Positions 5,220-51,469 of a DNA stretch of 64,000 bases are shown one piece after another. Under the pieces are notes generated by a model. That model ran no database searches. It was not told where the DNA came from and worked only from the letters and a program-made list of their open reading frames with translations. The DNA is taken from the IMG/VR virus record IMGVR_UViG_3300045988_108496, positions 1 through 64,000 of that record, one strand, 5' to 3'. The translations under genes were made by a program, and so were the position numbers. The DNA is from a virus. The first letter of the stretch is position 1, and every line of letters begins with the position of its first letter.

Positions 5220-6977
5220 ATGACAACAGTTAGCAATATCAGCGAGCTCCAACAGCGTAGTGAGGAGCTCCAGTCGCAAGGCTACGAGGCCGTTCTGCCT
5301 GGCGCGTTCTGTGCGCCTAAGCAGGGAGGCAACGTGTTTTCGTGGGGCGAGTACGTTCACCAGAAACTCACGGCTTCGGCCACCATGACCGGAGCGGAAG
5401 GCAATGCGGCAAGACGGGAGATCTCCGCCGTGTTCGGTTCGTCGGGCGGCGAGAACAAAGCCAAGCCCGAAGGTGTGGGTACGCCTGGACTGGGATTTAT
5501 GGAGTGGGGCGTGGGCAACCGACTGCCCAACCTCGTGTATCTGCTTTCCAAAATGTCGCCCTTTCCGGCAGCGGGAGTGGATTTCGTGAAGAAGATTCTC
5601 GTTGGTCGCGGACCATGCGCCAAGTATCACTATACGCAGTACGTTGGTGGCAACATCACCGAGAAGTTTATCTCCTTCCCCTCGGCTGGCACCCTGCTCC
5701 GCGGACAGATAGCCGACCTCAAGGCTAAGGAAGACCAACTCTCACAATCGGATAACCAACTCTCACAATCGGATAACCAATTCTTAAAATCGGATAACCA
5801 ATTCTTAAAATCGGAGACCAATTCTGAGAGTGAAGACAGCGAAGAGATGAAGTCGCTCAAGGCAGCACTGGCAGAATGGGAACGCACCAATGAGGAGCTG
5901 CAAGAGTTTATCGAGAACAACGACCTCATGCGCACCTATCTTGAGATGGCAGGCGATATGTCGCTCATGTCGCAATGCTTCTGCGAGCTACAGCTCAACC
6001 AACGTCAGTTGGACGAGAACGGCCGACCCGTGCCCACATCACAGTGGAACCCGAAGATTGTCGGTATAAAACCTCGCTCGGTGTTCACCACCCGACTGGA
6101 GCGCATGGATAGTCAGTATCGCATCAACTATGCCTACCTCTCTAACCAGTGGCTCGACTCCACTCAGACGCTCACCGAAGCCGACCGTCGCATTGCTGCC
6201 GTGCCTTATCTCGCAGCCGACACAGCCGTCTCAGACCTCAAACGCCATGTGCGTGAGGCACGTCAGCAGCGTGTGAGCCGCAAGAACCGCCCCACACGCT
6301 TCATCATGTCTCCACGCGACTTCGGTGGTCCCTACTATGCCGATGCCCTTTGGCACAGCATCTTTGCCGGAAGCATCTTTGAGTATGCCTTCACCATTGT
6401 TGACGATCGTCTCACTCGTAAGCGCAACAGCAATATTATCGGTCGCGTGATTTACATCCATCAGGAATACCTCAAGCAGCTCTACACCCAACAGGGCGAG
6501 AACAAGAGCAAGACGATGGCACAGATACAGCAGGAGGTGTTCACAGACATCAATCGCTGGCTGTCTAATCCCGACAACGCAGGTCAGGCTCTTATCTCTG
6601 CCGTGTTCACTGGCTTGGACGGCAAGGAGCACAAGGCTTGGGAGATTGTGGAGATTGAGAGCAAAGCCAACTCGCAAGCGCAAGCCGAGAAAACCGAGCT
6701 TCAGGAAATATCATCCATCATCTTCTTTGCCATGGGTTTGGACTCGAAGCTCATCGGCAACACCCCAGGCGACGCTACATCATCGGGTGGCACCGACCTC
6801 CGCGAGCGTTTCCTCGTAAAGCAAATCCAGTTTGCCCCATTGCAGCAGCTCATGCTCCGTCCGTTGGAGGTGATAAGCAAATTCAATGGTTGGGACCCGC
6901 ACCTGGTGTGGCAGATTGACCGCGAAGTGCTCACCACACTGGATAACTCGAAAACTGGGGTGACGATGCAGGAATAG
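5220..6977 (+). CDS. portal-like protein
   Basis: 585 aa. The size and C-terminal segment (SSGGTDLRERFLVKQIQFAPLQQLMLRPLEVISKFNGW) resemble portal proteins by memory. Contains a 4 x 21-bp in-frame repeat. Not verified by search. Confidence 0.55.
   Translation: MTTVSNISELQQRSEELQSQGYEAVLPGAFCAPKQGGNVFSWGEYVHQKLTASATMTGAEGNAARREISAVFGSSGGENKAKPEGVGTPGLGFMEWGVGNRLPNLVYLLSKMSPFPAAGVDFVKKILVGRGPCAKYHYTQYVGGNITEKFISFPSAGTLLRGQIADLKAKEDQLSQSDNQLSQSDNQFLKSDNQFLKSETNSESEDSEEMKSLKAALAEWERTNEELQEFIENNDLMRTYLEMAGDMSLMSQCFCELQLNQRQLDENGRPVPTSQWNPKIVGIKPRSVFTTRLERMDSQYRINYAYLSNQWLDSTQTLTEADRRIAAVPYLAADTAVSDLKRHVREARQQRVSRKNRPTRFIMSPRDFGGPYYADALWHSIFAGSIFEYAFTIVDDRLTRKRNSNIIGRVIYIHQEYLKQLYTQQGENKSKTMAQIQQEVFTDINRWLSNPDNAGQALISAVFTGLDGKEHKAWEIVEIESKANSQAQAEKTELQEISSIIFFAMGLDSKLIGNTPGDATSSGGTDLRERFLVKQIQFAPLQQLMLRPLEVISKFNGWDPHLVWQIDREVLTTLDNSKTGVTMQE
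5735..5818 (+). repeat. 4 x 21-bp in-frame tandem repeat inside the portal-like gene
   Basis: CCAACTCTCACAATCGGATAA x2, then CCAATTCTTAAAATCGGATAA and CCAATTCTTAAAATCGGAGAC. Encodes QLSQSDN QLSQSDN QFLKSDN QFLKSET. Confidence 0.9.
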
Positions 6978-6999: not shown

Positions 7000-7776
7000 A
7001 TGATAGAACTGAATAAGATATATAATGAAGACTGCCTGGAAGGAATGAAAAGGATTCCGGACGGGAGCGTGGATTGCATCGTGTGCGATTTGCCGTATGG
7101 TACGACTGCTTGTGCTTGGGATAGCGTGCTTCCGTTTGATGAGTTGTGGAAGCAATATCATCGTGTTCTCAAAATGGGGGGGGTAGTTCTTTTGTTTGGT
7201 AGTGAACCATTCAGTACTTCCATCCGCACAAGCAATATGAAAGAATGGCGATATGATTGGATATGGAAAAAGAATACTTCAGCAGGATTCGTTCATGCTA
7301 AAAACAGACCTCTGAAGAATTACGAGATAATATCTGCATTTTGCCGTTTCGGAATGGGCCATAAGAGTACAATGGGAGAGAAGCGTATGCCATACAATCC
7401 ACAAGATTTGCGGCCATGCCACAAGGTTAGTCATAGTGCACTAAACAAATTCGGTGGGGTTGTAGGCAAAAGACCTTCTCTGAAAGAGACAGTCGTAACG
7501 GAATGGGAGAACTATCCTACATCTATTCTTGAGTTCAACGTGGAGCCTGACTCTTTCCACCCCACTCAAAAGCCCGTCGCTCTTATCCAGTATCTCATTC
7601 GCACCTATTCCAACGAGGGCGACACCATATTAGACAACTGTATGGGCAGCGGCACCACCGCCATTGCAGCCATCCGCGAGAAGCGCAACTTCATCGGCTT
7701 TGAGCTCAACAAGGAGTATTACGACAAGGCTTGCAAGCGCATCAAGCTGGAGCAAGCGCAACTCACGCTGTTTTAA
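7000..7776 (+). CDS. DNA methyltransferase (beta-class N6A/N4C type)
   Basis: Motif IV-like VCDLPYGT near the N-terminus. FHPTQKPVALIQYLI and DNCMGSGTTAIAA (SAM motif I) near the C-terminus. Carries a G8 tract at 7176-7183. Confidence 0.85.
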   Translation: MIELNKIYNEDCLEGMKRIPDGSVDCIVCDLPYGTTACAWDSVLPFDELWKQYHRVLKMGGVVLLFGSEPFSTSIRTSNMKEWRYDWIWKKNTSAGFVHAKNRPLKNYEIISAFCRFGMGHKSTMGEKRMPYNPQDLRPCHKVSHSALNKFGGVVGKRPSLKETVVTEWENYPTSILEFNVEPDSFHPTQKPVALIQYLIRTYSNEGDTILDNCMGSGTTAIAAIREKRNFIGFELNKEYYDKACKRIKLEQAQLTLF

Positions 7777-11439: not shown

Positions 11440-14274
11440 ATGAACAGCAAACTAACCATTCTTGCCGACGGCAAGCCCCTCGCCCTGAAGGAAGACGCAT
11501 CCATCAGCATCGAGTTGAGCAATCCCTTGTTCAACGACGTTGAGATGTTCTCCTATCCCGTAGAGCTGCCCTTGGAAGGCAACCGTCACTTTTTGAAGAA
11601 CGTGGATGATGTCAGTTCCGACATTCGCCCCGTCAGCTACGAGCACACACCTATGCAGATCGTCGCCGACGGCGTACCCTTCGCCTCCGGCACAGCCATC
11701 ATCCAGGAAGATGAACGCTTAGAAGACTCCCTCTCGCTCAACATCGACGCATCCACACAGTCATTCTCCGACCTCATTAGCGACCTCAAGTGCAACGAGG
11801 TGCCTATACCTTCTAAATATAAGGACCAGCTCTTGATAGGCGAGAAGATTGATGAAGTGAATGTTAGCGTGTCGTATAACACTGAGGTGGTTATTAAATA
11901 CAAAGGTAAGAAAGGTAACAAGAAGTATGGTTCGGTGGGCAAATCTGACACTCACGCTACCTTCTCTCCCCAGGCCCTCGGTTTCTCTTATCCTGCTCAG
12001 TGCAAGGAGGCAGGCGACAAGCACGCGGCTGTATTGAAGAAGATATACATCTATCCGAACAGTAACGAAGTGAATGTGCCCGACGTTCTTACGTCATACA
12101 TCAACGTGAGCGACCCCTACCCCATCAAGCCGTTCTGCAATGCCCGTGTATGCTACAAGCATTACGATCTTGCCGAAGACGGCTCAACGTCAGACAAGGT
12201 TGTAGAGTCTATCGACACCCGTAAAGGAGAGGATGATAAAAATACGAGCGAAAAGGAAATGTACGAAGACCGTGGTCCTATCTGGGTATTGGATGCCGAC
12301 CGTCCGCAGTCGGGCATCTGCTTCTACGTGTTGTTCTTTCTCGACTGCCTCTTCGAGCACCTTGGCGTGCAGTTTGACAATTCGGCTCTTACAGCCATCG
12401 GCGACATGAACCGCCTCTGCTTCTTCACCACAAAATGCTCCTACGACATCGAGCCGTTGTATTATGGCGAGAAGTACAAGGAGGAAGACGAAGCCGTGGA
12501 AGCCGGATTGAAAACCACGGACGATATTAAGGTCGGCTTCTTTCAGAAGCAAGCTAACAGCGAAAAGGAGGTAAAAAATCTTTTTGAAGATGTAAATATA
12601 TGGCTCAGTTCGCGCGGTTGTGGCGGTCAGCTCAAACTCGAAAATCCCAAAGACAAGAGCGTGCAGGAGGTCAGATACCGTGAGGTTACGTATAAGGTGG
12701 TAGAGAAGAAGTACGAAGGTGGCTTCTACAACCAAGGTGTTTTCAAGGCCACCGAAGTGGTAGCTGTGGAAGGCGACTGGGTAACTGAACGTGTAGGCGA
12801 GAACAAAATTGCAAGCATCACTTGCAAGAGTACCATCGATTCGGCGCAGATGAGTGCAAGTATCTTCCGTATGTATGCCAACGGCAAAAACTTCCCTGCC
12901 GAGTCGGTGTCAGATGTTATCGACTCGCTTGAACAGCAGTTCGGCATAAAGTTTCATTATGACTACGAACAGAAAAAGGTTACGGCTTATCTCATTCGTG
13001 ACGTGTTCCGCAAGCAGAATCCCGACCCTCGCCCCCTCCATGCCGAAGTGCTCTCTATGGTACCCATGACGGAGAAGATAACCGGTGTGCGTGCCGGATA
13101 TGCAGCCGAAAGCGAAGCCAAAGAGCAAAAGGACAACGTGAAGAACAAAGTGAAGGACTACAACACCGATTACGACTACATCGAATACCCCAAGAACCGC
13201 ACCGTGACAAGTCTTACATATAAGGATATTATTCATCGTGTGCAAAATGGCGAAATGAGCGTGTTCATAGACCTTCAGACGGGCAATAAGTATCGTGTGA
13301 AGATTGACAAGGATTTTACCAATGCTGGCGATATGAATCCGCGACTGTTTGAGGTGGGAGCCATGAAGGGAGTGGAAACAGGCGATTGTTCTACGCTCAA
13401 CGAAGACTACATCATAGAGTTCAAGTCATCGTTTGTTCCTGTCGGAATGGTGGATGCCAACTACCGTAAAGCTCTATCATCAACATCGGGCAGCACGTGC
13501 GTTAGCGATGACCCAAAGCAGCCAACCGAAGTAGGTAAGGAATATAAAGGTAAAGAGGTTGGAGGATTGAACGAGTCTTACGCCAAGACCCAGATGGCAG
13601 CTCTCATCGACGAGGATATGGAGCATGAGTTTGTGAAGCAATACATCAAGAACCCCATGTCGTCAATGGTTGCCGACTTCTACGTTACCGAAGAACTCTC
13701 GCTGCGTGAGAGCTATGATCCGTCGTCTACCGATGACGGCAACTCGCCCCTTCAGTCATACGACTGGGGCTTGTCTGTGGCTATCATGCGAGGTGGCGGC
13801 ATCGATGCGACACACGAAGCCTACGGCTATAACTATGACGGATTCGGCAACTCGAAGTGGCGCACAAAGGCTGGCGACTATGCCCTTACTACCGACTCCA
13901 TCGACCCATACGGCAACGAGTACGACTACAACGGCGTTGAGTCGGGCATCGGCAACGAGGAACGCTTCTCCTTGAAGCCACGTGCTTGGGTGCAGCCCGA
14001 ATGGGCAGACGCTCCACTCGTAGTAAACACTCCATCGGTAAAGAACCGAGGCTACGTAGACGTGTTCCTCGTCGATTACATCTACTTCCTCCTTCACCGT
14101 AAGAAGTATTACGTCAAGTGCCTCGCCTCCGTAGCGCAGATAGCCGACATTCAGAACCACTGGAAAGAGTGGTGGACCATTGACGGCAAGAAATGCCTAA
14201 TCAACAAGGTAAATGCCGACGTGACGGCGAAGGAAGGAATGGGAGAAGTAGAAATGGAAATCTACAGCATTTAA
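11440..14274 (+). CDS. large virion structural protein (baseplate/tail-like)
   Basis: 944 aa. Lies in the structural gene run upstream of the fibre genes. Preceded by a 7 x 10-bp AAGGC array. Function inferred from size and position only. Confidence 0.5.
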   Translation: MNSKLTILADGKPLALKEDASISIELSNPLFNDVEMFSYPVELPLEGNRHFLKNVDDVSSDIRPVSYEHTPMQIVADGVPFASGTAIIQEDERLEDSLSLNIDASTQSFSDLISDLKCNEVPIPSKYKDQLLIGEKIDEVNVSVSYNTEVVIKYKGKKGNKKYGSVGKSDTHATFSPQALGFSYPAQCKEAGDKHAAVLKKIYIYPNSNEVNVPDVLTSYINVSDPYPIKPFCNARVCYKHYDLAEDGSTSDKVVESIDTRKGEDDKNTSEKEMYEDRGPIWVLDADRPQSGICFYVLFFLDCLFEHLGVQFDNSALTAIGDMNRLCFFTTKCSYDIEPLYYGEKYKEEDEAVEAGLKTTDDIKVGFFQKQANSEKEVKNLFEDVNIWLSSRGCGGQLKLENPKDKSVQEVRYREVTYKVVEKKYEGGFYNQGVFKATEVVAVEGDWVTERVGENKIASITCKSTIDSAQMSASIFRMYANGKNFPAESVSDVIDSLEQQFGIKFHYDYEQKKVTAYLIRDVFRKQNPDPRPLHAEVLSMVPMTEKITGVRAGYAAESEAKEQKDNVKNKVKDYNTDYDYIEYPKNRTVTSLTYKDIIHRVQNGEMSVFIDLQTGNKYRVKIDKDFTNAGDMNPRLFEVGAMKGVETGDCSTLNEDYIIEFKSSFVPVGMVDANYRKALSSTSGSTCVSDDPKQPTEVGKEYKGKEVGGLNESYAKTQMAALIDEDMEHEFVKQYIKNPMSSMVADFYVTEELSLRESYDPSSTDDGNSPLQSYDWGLSVAIMRGGGIDATHEAYGYNYDGFGNSKWRTKAGDYALTTDSIDPYGNEYDYNGVESGIGNEERFSLKPRAWVQPEWADAPLVVNTPSVKNRGYVDVFLVDYIYFLLHRKKYYVKCLASVAQIADIQNHWKEWWTIDGKKCLINKVNADVTAKEGMGEVEMEIYSI

Positions 14275-15503: not shown

Positions 15504-18500
15504 ATGACACAAGCAACAACCAGAGACTATTGGATTTCGCCCTCGGCATTGCACATCGAACTAAATGCCCTTGGCAATCCTGACTATATTCAGGCATCGT
15601 GCATAAGCGGTGCCCAAATTCTTGTGTACGTTAAGAATATTATCGGCTTCGATGCTGGACACAATTACCGGCGCTGGTCCTTGCAGGCAGTTCCAACGGT
15701 ATTCAACACCCACACCGAGAAATACGTTTATGCCGCCATCCCTCGCGACATGACGCTCACGGCTTCGGCATTGATTGTGTTCCCGTCTGAGCAGGTAGAC
15801 ATCTACGGCAAGAACGAAAAAGAAGAGCAGATAGGCGATGAGAAGTACTACTACATCTTTCTGCAAGGTGTCATCACCTCGTCGGGTGATAATGGCACGG
15901 TGCAGCGCGATTGGAAGGAAGGCTGCAGAATCGTATATGGCTACTTGTCCTCAGACGAAGCAATCAGTGCCATTCCCTACGAAAGCGAGTGGTATAACTA
16001 TGCTTCGGTAGACGGAATCGTAACATTCCTCAAGGACATCACGATGAAGGCGGGCTCTAAATTTCGCCAACTTTTCGCAAAGACTCTCACTATTGTGTCC
16101 GGAGGACATATCGCTTTTGAAGGACAAGGCGAGGTGAATGGAGTAGCCACAACGGGCACGCAGTTTGAGTCTACCGACAAGATTGTAACTCCGAAGTTTC
16201 TTGACGATAATGCGCTGTCAAAAGTAAAACAGGATGTCGCGCAGAAACTTATCCGTTTTTTGGAAGGTATCGCATTCGGCGAACAGAGCGACAATAACCC
16301 TCTCGGCATCTCCTCTGACGGAATCGCCACACTCAAAGAGGTTGTGTCAGCTGCGTTCCGTTCGGGTGCGCTCGGCTCTGGTTTTAAGCTTGGTGATTAC
16401 AACGGAAGTGGTGACAGTTACTTGGAGGTAGACCGCCTGCTTGTGCGCAAGGCGGCGGAGTTCGTAAGGCTCGTAATCCGAGAGTTGCAAAGCGTAGGTG
16501 GTGAGATTGTTCTGTCGCCTGCTGCCATGAAGATTAGCAATGTGGTCTATTTCGAGAAAGGTGTGTATCTTCCCGAATATGAAGCTCTTCCTCTGCGCTA
16601 CAATGTTTACCGCTGCTACTTCTCGCAGAAGAAAGGCGACGAAGAGATTGAGAACCAGTTCGTCGAGGACGACCTTGTGCGCTGTCAGACGTTCAACGTC
16701 AAGGAGGGCGTGAATGAGAACGTGAAGAACAGATACTACTGGCGTAAGGTGTACAAGGTAGGCAAAGATTTCATTGATGTGCTTGCTGATTTCTGCGATA
16801 CTGGCAGCGATATTCCGCAGGCAGGTGACGAGCTTGTACAGATGGGCAATACGACGGACACGGCACGCCAGTCAGTCGTTGTTCTATCGGCATACGGAGC
16901 GGATGCGCCATCGTTAAAGATGTACGAAGGCGTAGATAGCTACTCGTTAGAAAACAAGGAGGTCTTTGTCCTATCGCGTTCCGAGATGTTCGCCATAGCC
17001 GATAAGTTTAGGTTCGTTACGCGCAAGGCTAATGGCGAGATAGAAAGCACGCAGTCGTTTGCGGAGCTTGTGATGTCCGTGGATGGGCTCAGAACAACGG
17101 TCAAAAGAAACAAAGAAGAGCTTGACGACGAGATAAAAAGCACGCAGTCGCAGATAACACAGACCGCAAATGATATAAGAACAGAGGTTAGGAGAGACTA
17201 CTCTACCAAGAAGGATGTAAACGACCAAATAGCAACTGTTAGCTCTTCTATAACACAGACCGCTACACAGATAGCGATGAAGGTGGGCTACACTCTTGCC
17301 GAGCGACGTAACCTGCTCGTCGGCTCGTTGTTCCGCAAGCAAGGCGAGGGTTTCTTTCTTCTGCGCTCTAAGATATATCGCACGTCGGCGCATGAGGGTG
17401 CTAATGTGATATTCGCACCAGAAGCTAAAGCAGGCGGTGTGCAATGGGGTGGAGCGGCGAACTCTCACAACATACACGTCACCAAGGGCAAGACGTACAC
17501 GCTGGCTTTCTGGGTACGCACGAAGTCTGCCAGAGTAGAAATTGTGGGCGAGACGATATGGCATAGCTCGGCAACCGACACGTCGCGACCAAGTGGATAT
17601 ACCGGTCCTAACGGTAGTGCGAATTTAGGCGGCGTAACGATAACGCCAAGCAACGGATGGTATCTCTACCAAAAAACCTTTACCGTGGCAGCGAACGCCC
17701 CTTATGAGTGGATTTCCGTGGCGTGTCTAAAAGCTAACGCATCTACTGCGAGTCAGCAGGTGTACATCGCCCACCCTATCCTCATAGAGGGTACGGCGGA
17801 GGACTTTGTGTGTTGGAGCGCATCGCCTGACGACTACGACTACATCGGGGGCAACTTGCTTGACAACACGCGCACGTTTAATAAGACAGGCAATCTGATG
17901 CGAATGGATGCGTCAGTGGTAACTAACGGGTCGTACAACAACGGATGCTCGGTAATATATGCAAACGCTGCCTCCAAATACATTGAGATGGCGCAGTGGA
18001 GCGTTAGCTCTATCATCAAGAAAAATGAGGACTACATATTATCCTTTATGGCAAAAGGTTCCGGCAGCATCGACGCATACATGTGGAGTGGTTCTAATCT
18101 AAGCATATTCGCCGAGGACAGCGAGCGCGATACAACAACGAGCAACGCCGACGGAGGTCGTCGCTTCTCTCTCACAAGCGAGTGGAAGCGTTATTGGGTA
18201 CACTGGCGTTCTGAGGGCACTGGCATACCTAATTATGTATTAATCCGTTGTTCGCAAGGCGGAAAGGCGTGGGTGACAATGCCGAAGTTGGAGGTGGGTG
18301 CAACGCCTACCGATTGGATAGAGGGCAAGAGTGGTTTTATCGAAGACAGTGGCATTGCAGCCAAACTACTGCGCACAGGCTTAGACGTCGAAAATGGCAA
18401 GATAACGGCAACGGCGGATAAGTTCGAGGTACGCAACAACAGCGGTGAGACAACGGCAAGCGTTAATGAGAAAGGTTTGTTAGAGGTTGGCGCAGGAGTT

Positions 18501-19028
18501 TTTTCGGGACTAATCCGTAAGAAGATGACGGAGATAACGCCTGAGAACTTAAAGGACTATGTCACCGACCAAGCAGCACTGGCTCTCGGAAATATCCAGA
18601 TTGACTTCGAGAAGACCGGCTGCTTTGTGAAGTTTACGGGTAACATAAAGGCGATGACTAAGTCTGATGTTGTTATTGTTCCACCTTTCTACATGCCCAA
18701 CCATACAAACTGGGGCAAACTGAGCACAAAGACGGTTTACGAGGCTATGGCGTATGTCGGACAGACCATTATTGTTGTCAATGATAGTGATACAGAAATG
18801 ACTACAATCGGATATACGAGTATGGATTTCGACCATGCCAGCAAATATTTTGGCAGAGGGCAAGGCGCGATGATGACCTGCGTTGTCAATAAAGGTCAGA
18901 ATAGTTGCACTGTGGTATGGAACGGCAGACAGTTACCGTTTTCAAGCCCTGCACTTGAAAGCGAGTCCGACCCGACAAGTACTGCTGAAGACCCGACAGC
19001 AACAGAAGAAGAACAACCAAAAGAATAA
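15504..19028 (+). CDS. tail fibre / receptor-binding-type protein
   Basis: 1174 aa. Carries a fibre-like coiled segment (STQSQITQTANDIRTEV...SSSITQTATQIAMKV) followed by beta-rich carbohydrate-binding-like modules. Confidence 0.6.
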   Translation: MTQATTRDYWISPSALHIELNALGNPDYIQASCISGAQILVYVKNIIGFDAGHNYRRWSLQAVPTVFNTHTEKYVYAAIPRDMTLTASALIVFPSEQVDIYGKNEKEEQIGDEKYYYIFLQGVITSSGDNGTVQRDWKEGCRIVYGYLSSDEAISAIPYESEWYNYASVDGIVTFLKDITMKAGSKFRQLFAKTLTIVSGGHIAFEGQGEVNGVATTGTQFESTDKIVTPKFLDDNALSKVKQDVAQKLIRFLEGIAFGEQSDNNPLGISSDGIATLKEVVSAAFRSGALGSGFKLGDYNGSGDSYLEVDRLLVRKAAEFVRLVIRELQSVGGEIVLSPAAMKISNVVYFEKGVYLPEYEALPLRYNVYRCYFSQKKGDEEIENQFVEDDLVRCQTFNVKEGVNENVKNRYYWRKVYKVGKDFIDVLADFCDTGSDIPQAGDELVQMGNTTDTARQSVVVLSAYGADAPSLKMYEGVDSYSLENKEVFVLSRSEMFAIADKFRFVTRKANGEIESTQSFAELVMSVDGLRTTVKRNKEELDDEIKSTQSQITQTANDIRTEVRRDYSTKKDVNDQIATVSSSITQTATQIAMKVGYTLAERRNLLVGSLFRKQGEGFFLLRSKIYRTSAHEGANVIFAPEAKAGGVQWGGAANSHNIHVTKGKTYTLAFWVRTKSARVEIVGETIWHSSATDTSRPSGYTGPNGSANLGGVTITPSNGWYLYQKTFTVAANAPYEWISVACLKANASTASQQVYIAHPILIEGTAEDFVCWSASPDDYDYIGGNLLDNTRTFNKTGNLMRMDASVVTNGSYNNGCSVIYANAASKYIEMAQWSVSSIIKKNEDYILSFMAKGSGSIDAYMWSGSNLSIFAEDSERDTTTSNADGGRRFSLTSEWKRYWVHWRSEGTGIPNYVLIRCSQGGKAWVTMPKLEVGATPTDWIEGKSGFIEDSGIAAKLLRTGLDVENGKITATADKFEVRNNSGETTASVNEKGLLEVGAGVFSGLIRKKMTEITPENLKDYVTDQAALALGNIQIDFEKTGCFVKFTGNIKAMTKSDVVIVPPFYMPNHTNWGKLSTKTVYEAMAYVGQTIIVVNDSDTEMTTIGYTSMDFDHASKYFGRGQGAMMTCVVNKGQNSCTVVWNGRQLPFSSPALESESDPTSTAEDPTATEEEQPKE

Positions 19029-24031: not shown

Positions 24032-24370
24032 TCACTCTGCCTTAATGCTTGCGCTGATTTTTGCGCCACACGACGGGCAGACTGTCTGTATCTTAAATTC
24101 TGATGGTGCTTTTTGTGTCTTTTCGCATTCCTGCCATTGATCTTCGTCTGGGAACAACTCAGTTATCTTCACGCCTAATGCGTCGGCTATCTCATAAAGG
24201 TTGCTCAATGAAGGATTGCCGTTGATACGCGAACTCATTGTAGCTTTCGTGATTGTGCGCTGATTGTTGTCCTTGTCGGTGCGGATTATCTTGTTGGCGA
24301 GGTCGGTCAATGTAAGACCCTTCTCCTGCATGATTTCAGCTATGCGGAGATTGTTTCTCTTTCGTTCCAT
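24032..24370 (-). CDS. XRE-type HTH regulator with C-terminal CxxC
   Basis: LRIAEIMQEKGLTLTDLANKI...ATMSSRINGNPSLSNLYEIADALGVKITELF is an HTH_3 pattern. C-terminal CPSCG. Confidence 0.7.
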   Translation of the reverse strand: MERKRNNLRIAEIMQEKGLTLTDLANKIIRTDKDNNQRTITKATMSSRINGNPSLSNLYEIADALGVKITELFPDEDQWQECEKTQKAPSEFKIQTVCPSCGAKISASIKAE

Positions 24371-24527: not shown

Positions 24528-24971
24528 CTACCCTACCCCATTCTTCTCCTCGGCATATCGTGGAATGTTGGTGACGAGGAAGGCAGTGGCGCAGTTTGGG
24601 CATACCAGCACTTTGTGTGCGTCTTGTGGGGTCTGGGCGAACAGCGGACCTAAGCGTTCACGCTCGGCATACTCCTTCAGTTTTTCAAAGCTCACCTTGG
24701 GCTCTTCGATGATTGTGCCGTCTTGAGCCATGCGATAGAAGAAGTCGCGAGGGTCAACGTCTATTGCCCAGGCTATCTTGTATATGGTGGAGAGCGTAGG
24801 ATTGCCCGAAGTCATTTGCGACACGGCAGCCTTGGTCACACCCAGACGTTCTGCCACTTGCTGAGTGGTGAATCCCTTTCGGTGAACGGTCTCCATAATG
24901 TTCAGTTCCGTAACGGGAGCGTATGGCTGCACCACCTTGCGCCCATCTTTCTTTATCTCGATGTCTATCAT
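24528..24971 (-). CDS. XRE-type HTH regulator with C-terminal CxxC (paralog)
   Basis: Internal ATG at 24969-24971 (MIDIEIKK...). The longer track start would overlap the TAACTTTG promoter box. HTH FTTQQVAERLGVTKAAVSQMTSGNPTLSTIYKIAWAI. C-terminal CPNC. Confidence 0.7.
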   Translation of the reverse strand: MIDIEIKKDGRKVVQPYAPVTELNIMETVHRKGFTTQQVAERLGVTKAAVSQMTSGNPTLSTIYKIAWAIDVDPRDFFYRMAQDGTIIEEPKVSFEKLKEYAERERLGPLFAQTPQDAHKVLVCPNCATAFLVTNIPRYAEEKNGVG

Positions 24972-24998
24972 ATATAGTGTTTTGTGTTGTTTATAACG

Positions 24999-25006
24999 CA
25001 AAGTTA
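24999..25006 (-). promoter_or_regulatory. -7 box TAACTTTG for HTH gene 24528..24971
   Basis: Plus strand CAAAGTTA, embedded in the same GCAAAGTTA string as the 24420 promoter. 28 nt upstream of the ATG. Confidence 0.5.
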
Positions 25007-25346: not shown

Positions 25347-25385
25347 GGGGGGGGGTGGTCTGTGGTGGTCTGTGGTGGTCGTGAA
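25347..25385 (+). repeat. G9 tract followed by a ~3 x 10-bp TGGTCTGTGG mini-array
   Basis: GGGGGGGGG, then TGGTCTGTGG TGGTCTGTGG TGGTCGTGAA, directly upstream of promoter-repeat copy 1. Confidence 0.8.
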
Positions 25386-25391
25386 TGTGCC

Positions 25392-25547
25392 TTATATATA
25401 ATAAGGTGTAATAATAAAATAATACAAAAATAAATACCTGTATGAAAAAATCCTTATTTTATTTGGCGGTGTTAGATTTTTTCCATACCTTTGCAGCAGT
25501 TAAAGAAAAAAACCAAATAGTAACAAATAAAATACTTTAAGATTATG
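25392..25547 (+). repeat. ~155-bp direct repeat copy 1 (promoter module)
   Basis: TTATATATAATAAGGTGTAATAATAAAATAATA...TACCTTTGCAGCAGTTAAAGAAA...AAGATTATG. Aligns by eye along its whole length with 26695-26849. Confidence 0.85.
25462..25493 (+). promoter_or_regulatory. promoter TTTG-N20-TACCTTTG
   Basis: -33 TTTG at 25462-25465 and -7 TACCTTTG at 25486-25493. Inside direct-repeat copy 1. Confidence 0.65.
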
Positions 25548-25898
25548 AACAAAAGAAAATTGTCGTTGTTAATTGCGCTTGCAACAATAGCAACTAACAA
25601 CAAAGAAGGATTTACAGTAAATGCAGCAACTTTGCAACCAATTACAACAGGGTACGCTGTAGCCATCGCAGCAACACAAAATTCGTTTGGTCTCGAAGGC
25701 CTTGCGAACGTTGTAAAATACGTTAGCGAACACCCTGAAATAAATGCTTTTGGCGGTTGGTATAATAGCCAAAATAATATGTATTATTTTGACGCTACAA
25801 TGATTATTAAGGATTTGAAAACAGCTATAGAGATCGGGCGTGCAAATAAACAGCTTGCAATTTTTGATCTTACGAACGGCTTACCTATCGACTTATAA
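25545..25898 (+). CDS. hypothetical protein
   Basis: 117 aa. First gene after promoter-repeat copy 1. Followed by the GC hairpin at 25909-25927. Confidence 0.5.
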   Translation: MNKRKLSLLIALATIATNNKEGFTVNAATLQPITTGYAVAIAATQNSFGLEGLANVVKYVSEHPEINAFGGWYNSQNNMYYFDATMIIKDLKTAIEIGRANKQLAIFDLTNGLPIDL

Positions 25899-39197: not shown

Positions 39198-39283
39198 GTA
39201 AACAAATATATAGGAGTTGGTAAACAAAAACGTAGGTTTTGATACATAAAAACGTAGGTTTAAGTACATAAAAACGTAGGTTA
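39198..39283 (-). repeat. 4 iterons in inverted orientation, ~22-bp period
   Basis: GTAAACAAATATATAGGAGTT, GTAAACAAAAACGTAGGTTT, ATACATAAAAACGTAGGTTT, GTACATAAAAACGTAGGTTA. The last overlaps the rep ATG at 39283. Confidence 0.9.
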
Positions 39284-40875
39284 TGGCAAAGAAAGCGAAA
39301 AAAGAAGACAATGAAGGCAAACTTCAACATGCCTTGAACGAATTGCGCTGGATAAACACACCTGTCAACTATACATCATACGCTAAAAGCTATTCTCTCA
39401 TACAACAGGACGTTATGCTGTTGGTAAGCGGACGACTGCAAGACCATTTTGCCAAGTTTCTTAACGAACATCGTTATTTAAGCAAGGAACGACCCAATGG
39501 AGGTATAACGAAAGAAGACCTGTTGAAGATGGGACCGATACGTTTGCGCCTGGCTGACTTCGGTATAGACAGCAGCCATTATGACGAGTCGGTAAAGGTG
39601 ATAAACCAAATGAAGAAGATAGAGTTTCATTTACCGCGTTTCGATCCAGAGACAGGACTTAGAAAAGGTGAGGACTATATGCCTATATTCAGCAAGATAT
39701 TTATCCCGAAGAACTTCACATCACGAGAAGGAGAAGATTTCAACTATTCGGGAGACGGAGAAACAAAGATAGACGAGGACGGACAGGAAGTGCGCAAGTT
39801 CCGTCGTGACGGATATATCGAGGTTACAATAAACATTGAGGTGGCAAAAGCCGTGTTTGATATGGCAGACGGATATTTCAATCATCTTGAACGTATCGCC
39901 TATTTCTGCAATTCGGCTTACACGTCACGTCTTTATCTTCTGTTGATGAAGTACGCGAGCAGGGGGCAGATGCACCCTGCTATAGATTATCGTGAGCTGA
40001 AGGAAGCATTGGGTATGTTTAAGGTCGATGTGGAAAAAAGTGAACAACCCGCAAAGGTTGTCACTACTGAGAAATATCAAAAGTTCTCACAGTTCCGCAA
40101 ACAGGTGTTGGACGTGGCACGTGGTGACATGGAGCGACTGTGCGAGGAAAACAAGATAGAGATAATGCTATCGTGCATTGACCCCAACAAAAAAGGCTAT
40201 GAACCTATTTATAGGGGTAGCGTCAAACGAGGCAATCCTGAAAAAATCAAGTTTCATATTAAGCGCACACCGTTGGGCTTGGCGAGAGAATTGGAGTTGC
40301 ATCGTGGTTCGTCAGAAAAACGTTTGTGCGCCAAGTTAATGTCATTATATCCTACGCTCGACGAAGAACGGCTCAAGGCGTTTGTTGCTGACGTTCCCGA
40401 AGACCTTTGGAACGACTTTAAGGCGTATGCCTATAATGGAGTGCCGAAAGCGGTAGAGCAACCGCATAGATGGAATGGCACGGTGGAGGATTTCGTGTTT
40501 TACATTATGGAGCAATGGATAAAACAGCATAGTGTGAAGCATGAAGCCCAGCAGCAGACGTTTGCGTTTGTCGAAGCGGAGGAAGTGAAGCCGAAACCGG
40601 GCGAAAAGGAGTGGCAGAATCTTTTGACCATGCTTGACGGTGAAACAGGCGAGTGGCTGGGTAGTGAGATGTCGGACTTGTTGAAAAAAGTGATGCTTGA
40701 TGATTATGACGGCAAGACTGTCCGGATTATTGCGACTCAGGAGCAGGTGACAGCCATAGAGAATCTATTGGAGAGCAATGTACTACAAGGTAAGTTTAGC
40801 CAATTACTTGGCTATTGCTTTAAGGGCAATAAACGTAAAAAGGTCTGTTTGGATTATAAAAAACTTAACAAATAG
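39283..40875 (+). CDS. replication initiator (Rep, iteron-binding type)
   Basis: 530 aa. The ATG lies inside the last of 8 iterons. SYSLIQQDVMLLVS recalls the Rep_3-type N-terminus. The call rests mainly on iteron context. Confidence 0.65.
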   Translation: MAKKAKKEDNEGKLQHALNELRWINTPVNYTSYAKSYSLIQQDVMLLVSGRLQDHFAKFLNEHRYLSKERPNGGITKEDLLKMGPIRLRLADFGIDSSHYDESVKVINQMKKIEFHLPRFDPETGLRKGEDYMPIFSKIFIPKNFTSREGEDFNYSGDGETKIDEDGQEVRKFRRDGYIEVTINIEVAKAVFDMADGYFNHLERIAYFCNSAYTSRLYLLLMKYASRGQMHPAIDYRELKEALGMFKVDVEKSEQPAKVVTTEKYQKFSQFRKQVLDVARGDMERLCEENKIEIMLSCIDPNKKGYEPIYRGSVKRGNPEKIKFHIKRTPLGLARELELHRGSSEKRLCAKLMSLYPTLDEERLKAFVADVPEDLWNDFKAYAYNGVPKAVEQPHRWNGTVEDFVFYIMEQWIKQHSVKHEAQQQTFAFVEAEEVKPKPGEKEWQNLLTMLDGETGEWLGSEMSDLLKKVMLDDYDGKTVRIIATQEQVTAIENLLESNVLQGKFSQLLGYCFKGNKRKKVCLDYKKLNK

Positions 40876-45141: not shown

Positions 45142-48100
45142 ATGTTCTTTCATCCTATCATAAATCGTCTTGCCAACATCGACCTGCACCTTCTCGTGAA
45201 GCCCGCCAACGAGCAGCGCATCGAAGGTCAGACCGCATGTTTCTGCCCTATCTGCCAAAAGGGGCAGGACGCGGATGTCGATGCCAAGCAGACACCCCAC
45301 TTCATTATTTATGAAAATGAGCGAGGTGGGCTTTATTCGGGCGTGGGTGTTGACGACAACCGAATGGCAGAGCATGGTGCCGTGAAGTGGAAATGCACCC
45401 GCACGGGTAAGACCGGCTACGGAGCCATCGAGTTGTACGCAGCCAAGATGAACCTTCCGCTGCACGGATATAGTCTTCAGCGCATCTGCCAAAGACTTGT
45501 AAGGGATGTGTATGGCGATACCGACGAGGTGCGGCGTGCCTTCCCAGAGGTGTTTGCCAAGATGGACTACCGTACTCAGGCACAGCAGACCATCGAGACA
45601 TTCTCTTTCATGCCGAAGACCGACTTCTCGCCACAAGAGCTTGCAGCCCTTGGGTGTGAGGTGACGCTCGACAAAGGATTGCCTCGCTTCGGCTTTGGCA
45701 GTACGTTTACGCCCGACATGCTCAACAAGGACTTCCGCATCTACTCTCTGTTGAGTGTCACGCTGCCCGACGTAATACGCGACGGTCAGCATGTGAGCGA
45801 GATTATCCACGGTACGCCGTGGAATCCGCTGTTCGTATGCTTCGCCTCACAGGAGATAGGTCCGCAGAACTCTTACGGATGTTTCTTCCGTCCAGCAATG
45901 GCTGGGAGCGAACCGATAGTGTTCTCTACCGCCGAGGAGCACAGCGTGAGGAAGGTGAGCAAGTGGCTCATGGGCGACAACGTGTTCGTCTATGCAATGG
46001 ATCAGCGCAAGAGCGACAACACCGCCGTACATGCAGCCATCCAGAAGTTCGAGCCGACGGAGAAGTTTACCGAAGAAAAAGAAATCTGGGTAGAACGTGA
46101 AGACAAGAATGGCGTGGGGAAAGGAACATTTAAGCAAGAGAAGAAGAAGATTCCTACCGCCGAGATAAAAGCTCGCAACATCGTCTTTTGTCGTACACCC
46201 GAAGACGCATTGAGTGTGTATTATGCCATGCGTTCCTTGCGCCTTGATAAGGCGGAAGACCAACACTTCCAAGACTTTTGTTGGTATCACGTGGCGTTCT
46301 CCATCGGACGGAGAAACTTCTGGTATATAGAGCGCGGCGAGTGGAAGCGGGAGAATATTGACTTTAGCGGTGTGCAATATCAGAAGATGAACCGCTTTGC
46401 CGAGCACGTCATTATTCTATACCCTAACGACATTGCCTCACAGCGCGACTGCGGAGCTATATGCACCAAGTTCAGCTCATTGTATTATGCAATGCTGCCA
46501 GAAGGTTTCCGATCGCGCTATTGCCGACGCTGGCAATGGCTATATGGCTGCTCTCCCCGAAGCGTGCGCGATTATCTGCTGACGTACACCATGAACGCGG
46601 AGGAGAACTTCCAGTTCGACCATGACCTTCGCCTTCCGCTCTATTCCCGATTGCGTGGAGCCAGGAACACGGAACCTTTCGAGATAGAATATCCGCGTGA
46701 CCCTCGAAGCGGAAAGCCAAAGCCACCTACCTGCAAGGTGTCGCCTACGCGATTGTGGCTCTTTATGACCGCTCACGGATATTATCGCATGATAGACCCC
46801 GAGAGCACCGACCTCGTAGGACAGTATATCCACCTGAATAAATGCTTTGTGGAATATATCGACGCAAAGAGTATTATCCAGGCAGCAAAGACAATGCTTT
46901 TGGAATATATAGAACAGACATGGCGGCATAGCGACAACGAGCGGCGTTTGATGTCCGACTGTGCCAATATGGTGGATAAGACCTTCACGGAGAAGTCTGC
47001 CGGAGGTTTGCAGAGTATGGTGATTAATTTTGCCGATGCCTTCGATGCAAAGACGGAGTACTTCTACTTCAACAATGTGGCACTGAAGATAACGCCCGAC
47101 AGCATCCGCACGGTGTCGTATGACGACATCAACTTCTTTATCCCCTCGCTTGCCAAGAAGCCGTATGACTTCACGATGCGGGTGTTCAAGACACCGTTCA
47201 CCATCACCGAGCGTCAGGAATACCGCGATCGACTTGAAGCGATAGACAAGAAGGAGAAAATGCAGAATGAGGACGGGTCGCCAGTGTTCACCTACGACGA
47301 GATAAAGCAGATGCGTGGCGACCTTATGGAATGGGCGCAGACATATCGTTGGGATGTCAACTGGCAAGGACAGCAAGAAAAAGACCTTTGGCCTATTCTG
47401 CGCATAGTGCGCGGCTTCTCAAACACCCTTTGGGAGCGAGAACGAGACGTACAGCGTAGTAAAGAAGAACTTACTGAGGACGAGCGAGCTGTAATGAACG
47501 CCCATTTTGCCAATATGCTTTCGGGCATAGGCAGGCTTTGTTATCGTTCATGGGAAGGGATGCAGAACGTCTGTCCTTATCTTCTTGAGGATAATATCGC
47601 CGACGAGAAGCAAGCCTCTGGTGGTAGCGGTAAGTCGGTATTGGTAAACCTCGTGGTTGGTTCGGCTGTCAATGTGTTCAGTGTGGATATGAAAGACTTC
47701 CTTACCATTGTCGATGCAAAGTTCTGTCTTTCCGACTTGCTCACATATCCTGGCAAATATCGTGTAGTACACTGGGAGGACAAGCAGAAGAGCTTTCCGC
47801 TCAAATACTTCTACAACAAGATAACCAAAGGTACGAAGGTTGAAAAGAAATTTGGCGACCCCGTCAGTCTGAAGATGGAAGACTCACCGATGCACGTCAT
47901 AACAAGCAACAGTCCGTTGAGCGACGACGACCCCTCTACTATAGGTCGTTTTCCACTGGTTAGTTTCTCCGACCGTTTTGCTCGCGAGAATCCTCAAAAG
48001 CGACAGCCGGCACGATCACCATCCGACATTATGAAGCGTTTTGATACCGACCCCGCCAAATTGACCGATACCGACCGCAATCAGACCATATACCTTTGCG

Positions 48101-48810
48101 CCTTGGCAGTGCAGTTCTTGATGCACTACCACACCTTTGCCATTGCACCGCAAGGCAATGTGCGTCGCCGCCAGATGGTGCAGAAGCTCACCGAGAGCAT
48201 TGTCCGCTACTTCGAGTGGTTCTTCTCTCGCAATGAGGTCTACGGTGTGCCGATATGTACGGACGATATGTTCAACGAGTTTATGCGCGATTGGGCTGAT
48301 GCTTCCGAGGGTAAGAGCAAGGAGTATAGCCGTGCTACCTTCAAGAAGAAGATATACGACTATTGCGAAAACATGTCGATAGCGTGCAATCCTAAGCATC
48401 TCTTCGAGAACGAGAGTGACAAGCAGCGCAAATGCTTTAAGCTCCAGGCATGGGTTACGCAGGAATACTTTACCGGTCGTGAGTGGGAGAATGACAATAC
48501 CATCGAGCCGAAGTTTATCCGCTATATGCAGACCTCCAAGCATGTGTTCTTCTTCTTCCGTCCTGGCAAGGATGCGATACCGAAGGACTACCGCGAGCTA
48601 AAGCGCATAGCAAAGCAATATGCCGAGCAGCCCGACCCGCTGCCATACCGCGACGATGACGGCAATATCGTTCAACTCACTGATGAAGAGAAGGAACGTT
48701 GGGAGAACAACAAGACACGCAAGCAGGGTAGGCGTATGACTCCATCTGTGGCAGCTACGACAGCTACGGCTGTTGTGCCGGATGTAAATGAGGAGAATAT
48801 GCCGTTCTGA
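45142..48810 (+). CDS. primase-helicase-type replication protein (P-loop NTPase)
   Basis: 1222 aa. N-terminal Zn-finger-like CFCPICQ...KWKC...GYGAIELY. Walker A ASGGSGKSVL at about aa 825. Acidic C-terminus ending EENMPF. Confidence 0.6.
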   Translation: MFFHPIINRLANIDLHLLVKPANEQRIEGQTACFCPICQKGQDADVDAKQTPHFIIYENERGGLYSGVGVDDNRMAEHGAVKWKCTRTGKTGYGAIELYAAKMNLPLHGYSLQRICQRLVRDVYGDTDEVRRAFPEVFAKMDYRTQAQQTIETFSFMPKTDFSPQELAALGCEVTLDKGLPRFGFGSTFTPDMLNKDFRIYSLLSVTLPDVIRDGQHVSEIIHGTPWNPLFVCFASQEIGPQNSYGCFFRPAMAGSEPIVFSTAEEHSVRKVSKWLMGDNVFVYAMDQRKSDNTAVHAAIQKFEPTEKFTEEKEIWVEREDKNGVGKGTFKQEKKKIPTAEIKARNIVFCRTPEDALSVYYAMRSLRLDKAEDQHFQDFCWYHVAFSIGRRNFWYIERGEWKRENIDFSGVQYQKMNRFAEHVIILYPNDIASQRDCGAICTKFSSLYYAMLPEGFRSRYCRRWQWLYGCSPRSVRDYLLTYTMNAEENFQFDHDLRLPLYSRLRGARNTEPFEIEYPRDPRSGKPKPPTCKVSPTRLWLFMTAHGYYRMIDPESTDLVGQYIHLNKCFVEYIDAKSIIQAAKTMLLEYIEQTWRHSDNERRLMSDCANMVDKTFTEKSAGGLQSMVINFADAFDAKTEYFYFNNVALKITPDSIRTVSYDDINFFIPSLAKKPYDFTMRVFKTPFTITERQEYRDRLEAIDKKEKMQNEDGSPVFTYDEIKQMRGDLMEWAQTYRWDVNWQGQQEKDLWPILRIVRGFSNTLWERERDVQRSKEELTEDERAVMNAHFANMLSGIGRLCYRSWEGMQNVCPYLLEDNIADEKQASGGSGKSVLVNLVVGSAVNVFSVDMKDFLTIVDAKFCLSDLLTYPGKYRVVHWEDKQKSFPLKYFYNKITKGTKVEKKFGDPVSLKMEDSPMHVITSNSPLSDDDPSTIGRFPLVSFSDRFARENPQKRQPARSPSDIMKRFDTDPAKLTDTDRNQTIYLCALAVQFLMHYHTFAIAPQGNVRRRQMVQKLTESIVRYFEWFFSRNEVYGVPICTDDMFNEFMRDWADASEGKSKEYSRATFKKKIYDYCENMSIACNPKHLFENESDKQRKCFKLQAWVTQEYFTGREWENDNTIEPKFIRYMQTSKHVFFFFRPGKDAIPKDYRELKRIAKQYAEQPDPLPYRDDDGNIVQLTDEEKERWENNKTRKQGRRMTPSVAATTATAVVPDVNEENMPF

Positions 48811-49346: not shown

Positions 49347-49580
49347 ATGCGAACATTCACCCCCCCCAAGTGCGAAAACTGCATCTCTTACGACCATATA
49401 AAATGCGGTTGCAGAGAAAAAAGCTCACCTCTGTTCGGCGGCAATATCAGTCCGTTTCACCTTGCTTGCTGCAACTTTATAAGCGTGTCAAAGGTATATG
49501 CACCAAAGAACCGCATAAAGAAGTGGTATAAGGTACGCACGATGGACGACATGAGCGACAGCAGAGCGAGACTATATTAA
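49347..49580 (+). CDS. small Cys-rich protein
   Basis: 77 aa. CENC...KCGC...ACC. C8 tract at codons 5-7. Confidence 0.4.
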   Translation: MRTFTPPKCENCISYDHIKCGCREKSSPLFGGNISPFHLACCNFISVSKVYAPKNRIKKWYKVRTMDDMSDSRARLY

Positions 49581-50224: not shown

Positions 50225-50278
50225 TTCAAAATGCGCAACGCGCATAATTCAAAACTCAAATTTCAAAATTCAAAACTT
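50224..50278 (+). repeat. hairpin + heptad element (copy d)
   Basis: AATTCAAAA, then ATGCGC-AAC-GCGCAT, then AATTCAAAACTCAAATTTCAAAATTCAAAACTT, ending at ATG 50279. Confidence 0.7.
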
Positions 50279-51469
50279 ATGAAGTTACAAGCCCTATCAT
50301 CCAAAGCCCTGCACGCTGCCCTTAACAAGTCGGCAAAGTGTATCGGCTCTAAAAATCCCATTGCCATTTTCGACAATGTGCTGCTGACCTGCAACGAAAG
50401 CGGTCTGTTCTTTCTTACGTCATCTACAGCAGAAGCACAGCTCACCATCCCGGCGCCCATTTCGTTGTGCGGTGGCAAGTTTGATAAGCCGATAGTGCTA
50501 CCTATAAAGATGCTCAGTTCGCTGTTAGGCACACTGCCCGACTGCGTTGTCACTCTTGATATAGAGGAGGGTGGATCGTCGTTCACTGTAGAGTATTGCA
50601 CCGGCAGTGGCGACAACGTTAAGTCGGGCAAGGCTAAAATGGCTTATTTCTCGGGCAACGAATACCCTCAGATGCTATTGCCCAAGAGTGAGGCTTCAAC
50701 AATTATTTGCCTGCCTTTTCAGTTGTTCCATTCTGTTATAGATACTGCTGATAAGTTTGTTCAGATAGACGAACTTCGCCCCCAGCTTTCCAGCTTGTGT
50801 GTAGACATTGCCGACGACCGCTCAGAGGTGGTCTTTGCGGCTACGAACGGACATACGCTTGCAAAGATAGTACACAGCAATGATCCGCAGAAGGGTGGCA
50901 GTGATTTCTTCCGTAGTGGCGAGCCTCGCAAGACGCTTATCCACCGCAATTACTTCCGCACGTTGTCAGCCTTTGACGGATGCGAGGAGATCAGCATCGA
51001 GAACGACGGAAACACCATCCGTTTTTCGTCGGGCGACATCGAACTTATTTGCAAGCACATGGAGGGCAAATACCCTAACTACAGCGGCGTAATTCCGAAG
51101 TCCAACCCCTACTTCGTCGTATTTGACAAGAAGGAAATGACTGACATCCTGCGCCGTGTCAGTCTGTTCTCAAGTAGCGCAAGCAATCTTGTAAAGGTAG
51201 AGAAGAACGGCATTTTCATCAACGTTTCTGCGAGTAACATGGATTTTGCTTTGTCCGGCGAAGACCAGGTGCTCATATCTAACGCAGAGTGCCCCGACAA
51301 TTTCCGCATCGGATTGAAGTCGTCGGCTTTTCAGACCTGTATCAACTCCATTCCGTCGGACACCATACGAATGCAGTTGCTTGACGCTTCGCACGCCGTA
51401 GTGCTCACCGCTGACACACCTGCGCCTAAAGTGATGACGCTTGTGATGCCGATGCTGCTTGACGATTAA
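50279..51469 (+). CDS. dnaN: DNA polymerase III beta sliding clamp
   Basis: ATG 50279 (MKLQALSSKALHAALNKSAKCIGSKNPIAIFDNVLL...TSSTAEAQL). DnaN N-terminal pattern and a size of 396 aa. Confidence 0.8.
   Translation: MKLQALSSKALHAALNKSAKCIGSKNPIAIFDNVLLTCNESGLFFLTSSTAEAQLTIPAPISLCGGKFDKPIVLPIKMLSSLLGTLPDCVVTLDIEEGGSSFTVEYCTGSGDNVKSGKAKMAYFSGNEYPQMLLPKSEASTIICLPFQLFHSVIDTADKFVQIDELRPQLSSLCVDIADDRSEVVFAATNGHTLAKIVHSNDPQKGGSDFFRSGEPRKTLIHRNYFRTLSAFDGCEEISIENDGNTIRFSSGDIELICKHMEGKYPNYSGVIPKSNPYFVVFDKKEMTDILRRVSLFSSSASNLVKVEKNGIFINVSASNMDFALSGEDQVLISNAECPDNFRIGLKSSAFQTCINSIPSDTIRMQLLDASHAVVLTADTPAPKVMTLVMPMLLDD

Follow-up and report, generated by a model that had tools for sequence, protein, structure and literature searches.

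The 64,000-nucleotide (nt) stretch of viral DNA analysed here (positions 1 to 64,000 of IMG/VR virus record IMGVR_UViG_3300045988_108496, hereafter the window) comes from a phage that belongs to a Prevotella-associated family of about 90-100 kb, and it contains a DNA methyltransferase gene that carries within its coding sequence a run of eight guanines, here called T1. We consider it highly probable that T1 is a contingency locus, that is, a hypermutable homopolymer that would keep the phage population supplied with varied combinations of DNA modifications as a form of bet-hedging. This phase-variation reading rests on comparative genomics, which supports it strongly: the tract is overlong, uninterrupted and located within an open reading frame (ORF), its length varies among relatives, and the frame is toggled by these variations and restored when they are corrected. 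The tract and the gene carrying it are the following:

7176-7183, plus strand: T1, G8 homopolymer (GGGGGGGG), with a length that corresponds here to the ON state
7000-7776, plus strand: orphan beta-class N6/N4 DNA methyltransferase gene, complete, 258 amino acids (aa), carrying T1

The product of ORF 7000-7776 matches the Pfam family PF01555 N6_N4_Mtase (101.9 bits, 6e-29; cut-off 26.7), its residues 24-244 covering model positions 1-219 of 221, as well as PHROG 67 (3e-78) and the PADLOC type II methyltransferase model MTase_II (8e-75). It displays a DLPY sequence at residues 30-33 and an S-adenosylmethionine (SAM) motif, DNCMGSGTT, near residue 212 (GSGTT near 215), and thus has the beta-class motif order, in which motif IV (D/S-P-P-Y type) is N-terminal to motif I. 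The proposal of an earlier note on this DNA that a G8 run lies inside a full-length beta-class methyltransferase gene is thereby confirmed. The same note placed the run in codons 59-61 (K-M-G-G-V), which is essentially right, the tract extending from the third base of codon 59 (ATG, Met) through Gly60-Gly61 (GGG GGG) to the first base of codon 62 (GTA, Val). Removal of one G from the window allele leaves ...KMGG followed immediately by TAG, giving 61 aa, and addition of one G gives a 67-aa product. As had been anticipated, the tract therefore lies between the catalytic DLPY and the SAM motif and a slip truncates the enzyme, to 60-68 aa if the alleles of relatives are included; because the truncated products end past DLPY and before the SAM-binding motif, both should be inactive.

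The orthologous site, with conserved flanks, could be compared on at least nine independent contigs (designated by L numbers), and its length is G7, G8 or G9:

G8 (intact, 258 aa): the window together with L002 and L003, L049, L065
G7 (stop at 60-61 aa): L001, L038, L202, L280, L281
G9 (68 aa): L201, L282

A tract of invariant length among relatives, one of the outcomes that would have spoken against phase variation, was thus looked for and not observed, and these alleles support the candidacy of T1 as a phase-variable site. ON and OFF alleles were called by tblastn with the intact proteins of the window as queries, at least 20 aa being required on each side of the tract. Two other procedures were inadequate: scoring by ORF length after a one-base repair was too crude, because alternative frames are open over long stretches, and queries made of every tract-derived ORF led to circular calls, in which frameshifted read-throughs that were shared counted as ON (the small Cys-rich ORF described below came out as ON at 7, 8 and 9 nt). 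At T1, frameshifts were found in 4 of 7 tract alleles versus none of about 187 tract-less homologues; the same table contains two further OFF calls, located at G6 runs elsewhere in other homologues. Repair of the tract by one base produced an ORF of 257-258 aa in each OFF allele checked in this way (L201 and L202).

The approximately 187 more distant homologues have other residues at the T1 position, typically K-P-N-A-A or K-D-N-G-A, and no tract. Relatives encoding the same Gly-Gly with interrupted codons were also searched for, and all the contigs examined that retain K-M/T-G-G-V have an uninterrupted tract. One variant represented by its protein only, P0138, reads K-T-E-G-V at this position and is presumably an interrupted, locked version. 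Gene callers divide the OFF alleles into a fragment of 61 or 68 aa and a 179-aa fragment beginning at Met80, and public assemblies frequently contain truncated gene calls of the T1-type methyltransferase. P0121 is among these 179-aa products, and 109 blocks of the protein collection index it. Because there are several distinct sequences of 179 aa, the OFF state has arisen repeatedly and in many lineages. Phage methyltransferases annotated as frameshifted may accordingly be switches, and not pseudogenes or errors. The T1-type gene also occupies different locations: in L038 and in L049 (10611-11387), with 92-94% nucleotide identity around the tract, it lies directly downstream of the gene for a second methyltransferase, characterized by an NPPY motif, while in the window it is found about 50 kb from the NPPY gene, in the structural region. 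The T1-type gene is thus a mobile cassette that takes its tract along with it.

T1 is one of exactly five G/C runs of at least 8 nt in the window, and these are the five that the earlier note had listed by eye. The other four are:

25347-25355, intergenic, no strand: T2, G9 with a short tandem repeat of a 10-nt unit, (TGGTCTGTGG)n, directly after it at 25356-25380
49360-49367, plus strand: T3, C8 in a small Cys-rich ORF (49347-49580, 77 aa), of which it covers codons 5-7
56674-56681, minus strand: T4, within the NPPY methyltransferase gene (56530-57123, 197 aa), where it reads C8 on the coding strand and falls at residues ~148-150
57822-57829, minus strand: T5, within a PAPS-reductase-like gene (57516-58430, 304 aa), where it reads G8 on the coding strand and falls at residues ~200-203

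The distribution of run lengths in the window (47% G+C) sets these five apart. The G and C spectra drop steeply up to 5 nt, not a single G/C run of 6 or 7 nt is present in the whole 64,000 nt, and the five runs then appear at 8-9 nt; the numbers of A and T runs decay smoothly with length. Markov models of order 1-3 fitted to the window predict 0.09-0.25 G/C runs of at least 8 nt versus the five observed, and none of 200 simulated sequences contained five such runs, whatever the order. The expectation of one or two runs put forward in the earlier note was in this respect too generous. Its statement that three of the runs fall within three modification genes occupying about 3.6% of the window holds, the exact proportion being 3.57% (binomial P = 4e-4). 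Codon usage is also unusual at these sites: GGG is the rarest glycine codon (6.3% of the Gly codons in the window) and, among the 62 Gly-Gly dipeptides of the main ORFs, only two are written GGGGGG, namely those of T1 and T5.

The other tracts located in genes behave similarly in relatives. The NPPY methyltransferase matches the DNA methyltransferases of PHROG 799 (1e-68), with NPPY at residue 104. At T4, the ON alleles are C8 (22 cases) and C11 (one case) and the OFF alleles C7 (six), C9 (two) and C6 (one); frameshifts occur in 9 of 39 tract alleles versus 0 of 57 versions that are either interrupted (CCCCACCC, CCCCTCC and others) or devoid of a tract. The product of gene 57516-58430 matches Pfam PAPS_reduct (3e-13) over a region spanning T5, and its best match in the defence library is BrxP (9e-16), the match to DndC being weak. 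At T5, 18 of the 34 unique alleles with a run of at least 6 nt are OFF, as opposed to none of the 28 with shorter or absent runs. The T5 tract is retained even at 67-74% flank identity, and the length corresponding to ON depends on the flanks of the lineage, G8 in the clade of the window and G7 in a larger, divergent clade. At the T1, T4 and T5 sites alike, frameshifts were found only where an uninterrupted run of at least 6 nt is present.

An independent pattern-based scan showed that all tract-bearing OFF alleles of the PAPS-like gene (16/16) are restored to full length by a change of one base, as are the six OFF alleles of the NPPY gene that can be detected by ORF length (6/6), indicating that these alleles contain no second lesion. 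Where one locus has both tracts, the states of the NPPY methyltransferase and PAPS-like genes are ON/ON in four cases, ON/OFF in seven, OFF/ON in two and OFF/OFF in two, and the tract-bearing modification genes appear from these consensus states to switch independently. T3 is present as C7, C8 or C9 in relatives with more than 95% flank identity; loss of one C leaves 17 aa, and gain of one C a 61-aa out-of-frame product. No family match was found for this small Cys-rich ORF.

The intergenic tract T2 lies between two divergently placed minus-strand genes encoding helix-turn-helix-like proteins (24032-24370 and 24528-25001) and a plus-strand gene at 25545. It is a G8 in the two closest relatives (L164 and L165), in which the copy number of the adjacent repeat also differs, and is not present in more distant ones.

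We then considered G/C runs across the family. A control for polymorphism was restricted to groups of at least four loci sharing identical flanks of 25 nt. Length varied in 9 of the 12 groups of G/C runs that reach 8 nt or more in their longest member, in 3 of the 24 groups of A/T runs of 7-8 nt and in none of the 32 groups of G/C runs of 5-6 nt. Over 3.05 Mb of the relatives' loci, homologues of modification genes represent 11% of the bases and contain 75 of the 116 G/C runs of 7 nt and 97 of the 126 runs of 8 nt, that is, density ratios of 15 and 27, values that should be taken as descriptive because the loci and gene families were selected for methyltransferases and tracts. This formal scan thus found the strong enrichment in modification genes of G/C runs of at least 7 nt whose absence would have argued against the earlier note. 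No enrichment in these genes was seen for G/C runs of 5 nt (0.8x) or for A/T runs of 5-8 nt (0.7-1.1x). Rather than decaying, the distribution of run lengths is bimodal and peaks at 7-8 nt. By family, the 190 unique tract instances include:

PAPS-reductase-like protein: 47
NPPY methyltransferase: 33
N6_N4 methyltransferase: 24
Dam-like methyltransferase: 11
Small Cys-rich ORF: 9
Radical-SAM-like protein: 4
C5-methyltransferase-like protein: 3

Within one family, tracts occupy different positions (in the NPPY enzyme, residues 50, 68 and 148; in the N6_N4 family, residues 60, 140 and 206), which suggests that tracts may have originated repeatedly and independently.

The Dam-like (alpha-class) methyltransferase gene, found in relatives and not in the window, has a middle cassette of 19-418 nt inserted between its N- and C-terminal domains. 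Cassettes of this type are located as follows:

L289, ~2211-2628
L285, 2015-2413
L076, 7211-7606
L202, 3306-3631
L287

They contain up to five G7-G10 tracts plus one A8-A13 run, and 7 of 15 unique alleles have a cassette whose length preserves the frame. In L289, the cassette of 418 nt has no stop trinucleotide in any of the forward frames, where 8.5-14.6 would be expected (P < 1/5000), and because it is stop-free in all three frames it looks like the product of selection for tolerance of frame changes.

A plausible mechanism is slipped-strand mispairing during phage DNA replication, which would add or remove one G at a rate far above that of point mutation. With G8, the 258-aa methyltransferase is in frame; with G7, the ORF ends after 61 aa at the TAG, and with G9 after 67-68 aa. 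The same device is present in the NPPY methyltransferase gene, the PAPS-reductase/BrxP-like gene and the small Cys-rich ORF, so that the phage population would be continuously mixed for combinations of modification enzymes and would produce virions with differently marked DNA. Modification in the ON state would shield against host restriction enzymes that cut unmodified sites, and the OFF state would evade modification-dependent (type IV-like) defences and spare the cost of modification, some progeny being always suited to the next Prevotella strain. The purpose of the tracts is probably that each burst should carry variously marked DNA against hosts with different restriction systems. A broader proposal, which we regard as a serious possibility and hold tentatively, is that the family has a dedicated combinatorial "epigenetic coat-changing" system, in which several independently slipping G/C tracts in each genome would be aimed at DNA-modification genes (2-4 methyltransferases plus BrxP-like enzymes of the PAPS-reductase family) and the Dam-like cassette of some relatives would be an elaboration that tolerates excursions of the frame within it, its exit frame alone deciding between ON and OFF. 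Such a system would generate up to 2^n differently modified genome types per burst. More speculatively, alternative middle segments of the Dam-like cassette might alter the properties of the enzyme.

Methyltransferases are very common among phages of gut viromes, and the question is why there are so many and how phages cope with hosts that punish modified DNA. In natural populations of this abundant gut phage family, ON and OFF alleles are found at comparable frequencies, one homopolymer base apart, and this would be the first population-scale evidence of phages phase-varying their own DNA marks, as well as a testable model for host-range bet-hedging in Prevotella phages.

Several observations weigh against the interpretation of the tracts as switches of DNA modification. 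Many lineages have interrupted, "locked ON" tracts, and switching is therefore dispensable. We infer within-population heterogeneity, switching rate and reversibility from consensus contigs, some of which have low coverage (5.9x for L282), and a look-up of the exact 179-aa OFF product expected from the window's own allele returned no record. Switching of DNA methylation also presupposes modification activities that are predicted from homology. For the NPPY enzyme, the evidence consists of PHROG 799 and sequence motifs, with no Pfam match and no significant PDB sequence match; the putative role of the PAPS-reductase-like protein in DNA modification is suggested by its similarity to BrxP/DndC and by its neighbourhood, and a PDB sequence search with this protein gave nothing significant. 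Lastly, the loci of the enrichment scan were fetched around methyltransferase genes, the families were recognized because they bear tracts, and the counts were not deduplicated by contig.

The main rival explanation is neutral slippage in dispensable accessory genes, according to which the OFF alleles would be modification genes in the course of being lost, and not states of an evolved switch. The modification genes are indeed accessory and mobile within genomes, as illustrated by the T1-type gene, adjacent to the NPPY gene in L038 and L049 but separated from it by ~50 kb in the window. In many relatives the tracts are interrupted or missing, and simple repeats are depleted from essential genes in coliphages (PMC12633550). 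Against this explanation, all the OFF alleles tested show no damage outside the tract, the rarest glycine codon is used twice in the tract, T5 persists in spite of flanks reduced to 67-74% identity, tracts seem to have arisen independently at several sites of the same families, run lengths peak at 7-8 nt and do not decay, and the 418-nt Dam-like cassette is free of stops in all three frames. We therefore consider neutral loss to be unlikely. Sequencing or assembly artefacts, in which miscalled homopolymers would produce apparent G7 and G9 alleles, are a concern insofar as homopolymers are error-prone and at least one OFF contig (L282) has low coverage. Yet OFF alleles make up 23-57% among consensus assemblies that originate from numerous projects (ENA, JGI, Logan and NCBI), and most A/T runs of comparable length on these contigs do not vary. 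Errors moreover cannot account for the existence of the tracts, their make-up of rare codons, their placement in modification genes or the interrupted versions that are not shifted, and an artefactual origin is to our mind exceedingly improbable.

It may also be envisaged that the runs are programmed sites of transcriptional slippage or ribosomal frameshifting, in which case some full-length enzyme would still be produced from OFF genomes, or two isoforms from ON genomes. Homopolymers are a classical type of slippage site, and all frames of the cassette in the relatives' Dam-like gene are open, two features that would suit such RNA-level recoding. It is nevertheless very unlikely as the explanation of the tracts: polymorphism in length is seen directly at the DNA level and is sufficient, T1 at G7 runs straight into TAG, and the known cases of transcriptional slippage in bacteria take place mainly at A/T runs of at least 9 nt. 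RNA-level slippage could be additional to DNA switching, not a substitute for it. A G-quadruplex or a recognition site as the main role of the runs was rejected; neither predicts a length polymorphism linked to the reading frame, and a G-quadruplex is dismissed because a single G8 cannot form an intramolecular one.

Returning to the contingency-locus reading, phase-variable methyltransferases are well known in bacteria. Phasevarions are based on repeat-driven phase variation of type III Mod and type I HsdM/S proteins in Haemophilus, Neisseria, Helicobacter and Campylobacter, and poly-G tracts of ~8 nt or more are typical of bacterial phase-variable methyltransferases. T1 resembles these systems in that a repeat inside a methyltransferase ORF toggles the frame by one base. 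Contrary to phasevarions, the phage enzymes, of beta and gamma class, are type-II-like orphans that lack a res or hsd partner, and the substrate that matters is presumably the DNA of the phage itself, whose modification would help it to evade host defence, and not a cellular regulon. The best matches of methyltransferase 7000-7776 are to type II or orphan models, not to type III or type I mod/hsdM, and no restriction partner is evident, because the flanking genes lack Res or Hsd matches; in the libraries against which each was scanned (Pfam and PHROGs for 5220-6977), they in fact lack any family match, except for a downstream DUF6712 gene. T1 does not therefore define a phasevarion in the strict sense, since the enzyme is an orphan type-II-like viral protein without Res or Hsd partner. 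Methyltransferases with multiple tracts are known in H. pylori (PMC12003011).

The tracts may also be compared with those described in phages. In Prevotella and other Bacteroidota, the phase variation known is mainly driven by invertases and not by repeats. In Campylobacter phages, poly-G tracts reportedly lie in receptor-binding and other structural genes, where they alter host recognition. The two situations share poly-G tracts in phage genes and mixed phage populations, but the targets here are DNA-modification genes, and no tract was found in the tail-like ORF 15504-19028 or in the other structural ORFs of the window. The study describing these hypermutable tracts (Sorensen et al. 2021, Cell Rep 35:109214) is cited in PMC12823448 and PMC8713573. 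Functionally, the closest known system is the agt contingency locus of phage T2, in which an A9 run flips DNA glucosylation, TgvAB selecting OFF and McrA/BC selecting ON, with a reversion about 1000-fold faster than that of a point mutant (Gomez, Barrick and Waters 2025 preprint, PMC12633550). In both cases a homopolymer lies in a phage DNA-modification gene and ON and OFF forms are both found. With agt, the restriction system escaped in the ON state is not the one escaped in the OFF state, and by analogy the same bet-hedging logic may apply here. The A9 run of phage T2, however, belongs to an AT-rich genome in which such runs are common across all gene classes, whereas the G/C tracts described here are statistical outliers. 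There are also, unlike in phage T2, several tracts per genome, with a 15-27-fold concentration in modification genes (a descriptive figure, as explained above), and both ON and OFF are frequent in nature. Full-text searches of one literature library retrieved no description of such tracts in phages of Prevotella, of Bacteroidota or of the gut, which is not proof of absence.

As for the phage itself, the exact methyltransferase protein (7000-7776) is present on an 86-kb ENA human-gut scaffold and on one Logan contig, and the relatives comprise hundreds of IMG/VR contigs of 50-105 kb. No nucleotide match was found in the GenBank phage collection, using 20 kb in near mode and the modification cluster in distant mode. 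Most of the large ORFs received no annotation from Pfam and PHROGs, and several very large ones of 530-1222 aa (45142-48810, 11440-14274, 39283-40875 and 5220-6977) gave no Pfam match and no informative PHROG match; the 1222-aa ORF, which lies in the replication module and adjoins a sliding-clamp-like gene (50231-51469), might encode a very divergent polymerase. Many IMG/VR contigs of the family (L165, L166, L170, L176, L179 and L182-L185) start or stop 0.5-1 kb downstream of the homologue of gene 25545-25898. This clustering of contig ends near 26.5-27 kb of the window suggests a common genome terminus, a repeat or a variable region that breaks assemblies. T1 (7172-7186) and T4 (56670-56684) have an identical plus-strand context, AATG-G8-TAG, despite the opposite orientation of their genes, which may be due to chance (roughly estimated at ~1e-3) or hint at a common origin of the tracts.

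The putative TerL shows 27-30% identity to proteins of Microcystis and Polaribacter phages. Its relatives in species-representative genomes are mainly located on contigs binned with Prevotella metagenome-assembled genomes (MAGs), and one is found on a 90,283-bp contig of an isolate assembly, Prevotella sp. MGM1 (NZ_BEWV01000204.1; L291/L082). Judging from the MAG bins and this one isolate assembly, the host is probably Prevotella; the assignment of the phage to Bacteroidota in the earlier note fits this association, which is not proof of the host. The phage-sized contig of Prevotella sp. MGM1 has G/C tracts of its own, for example G7 at 10197, G10 at 10657 and G8 at 12499 and 12635 (L082), and represents a possible cultured system.

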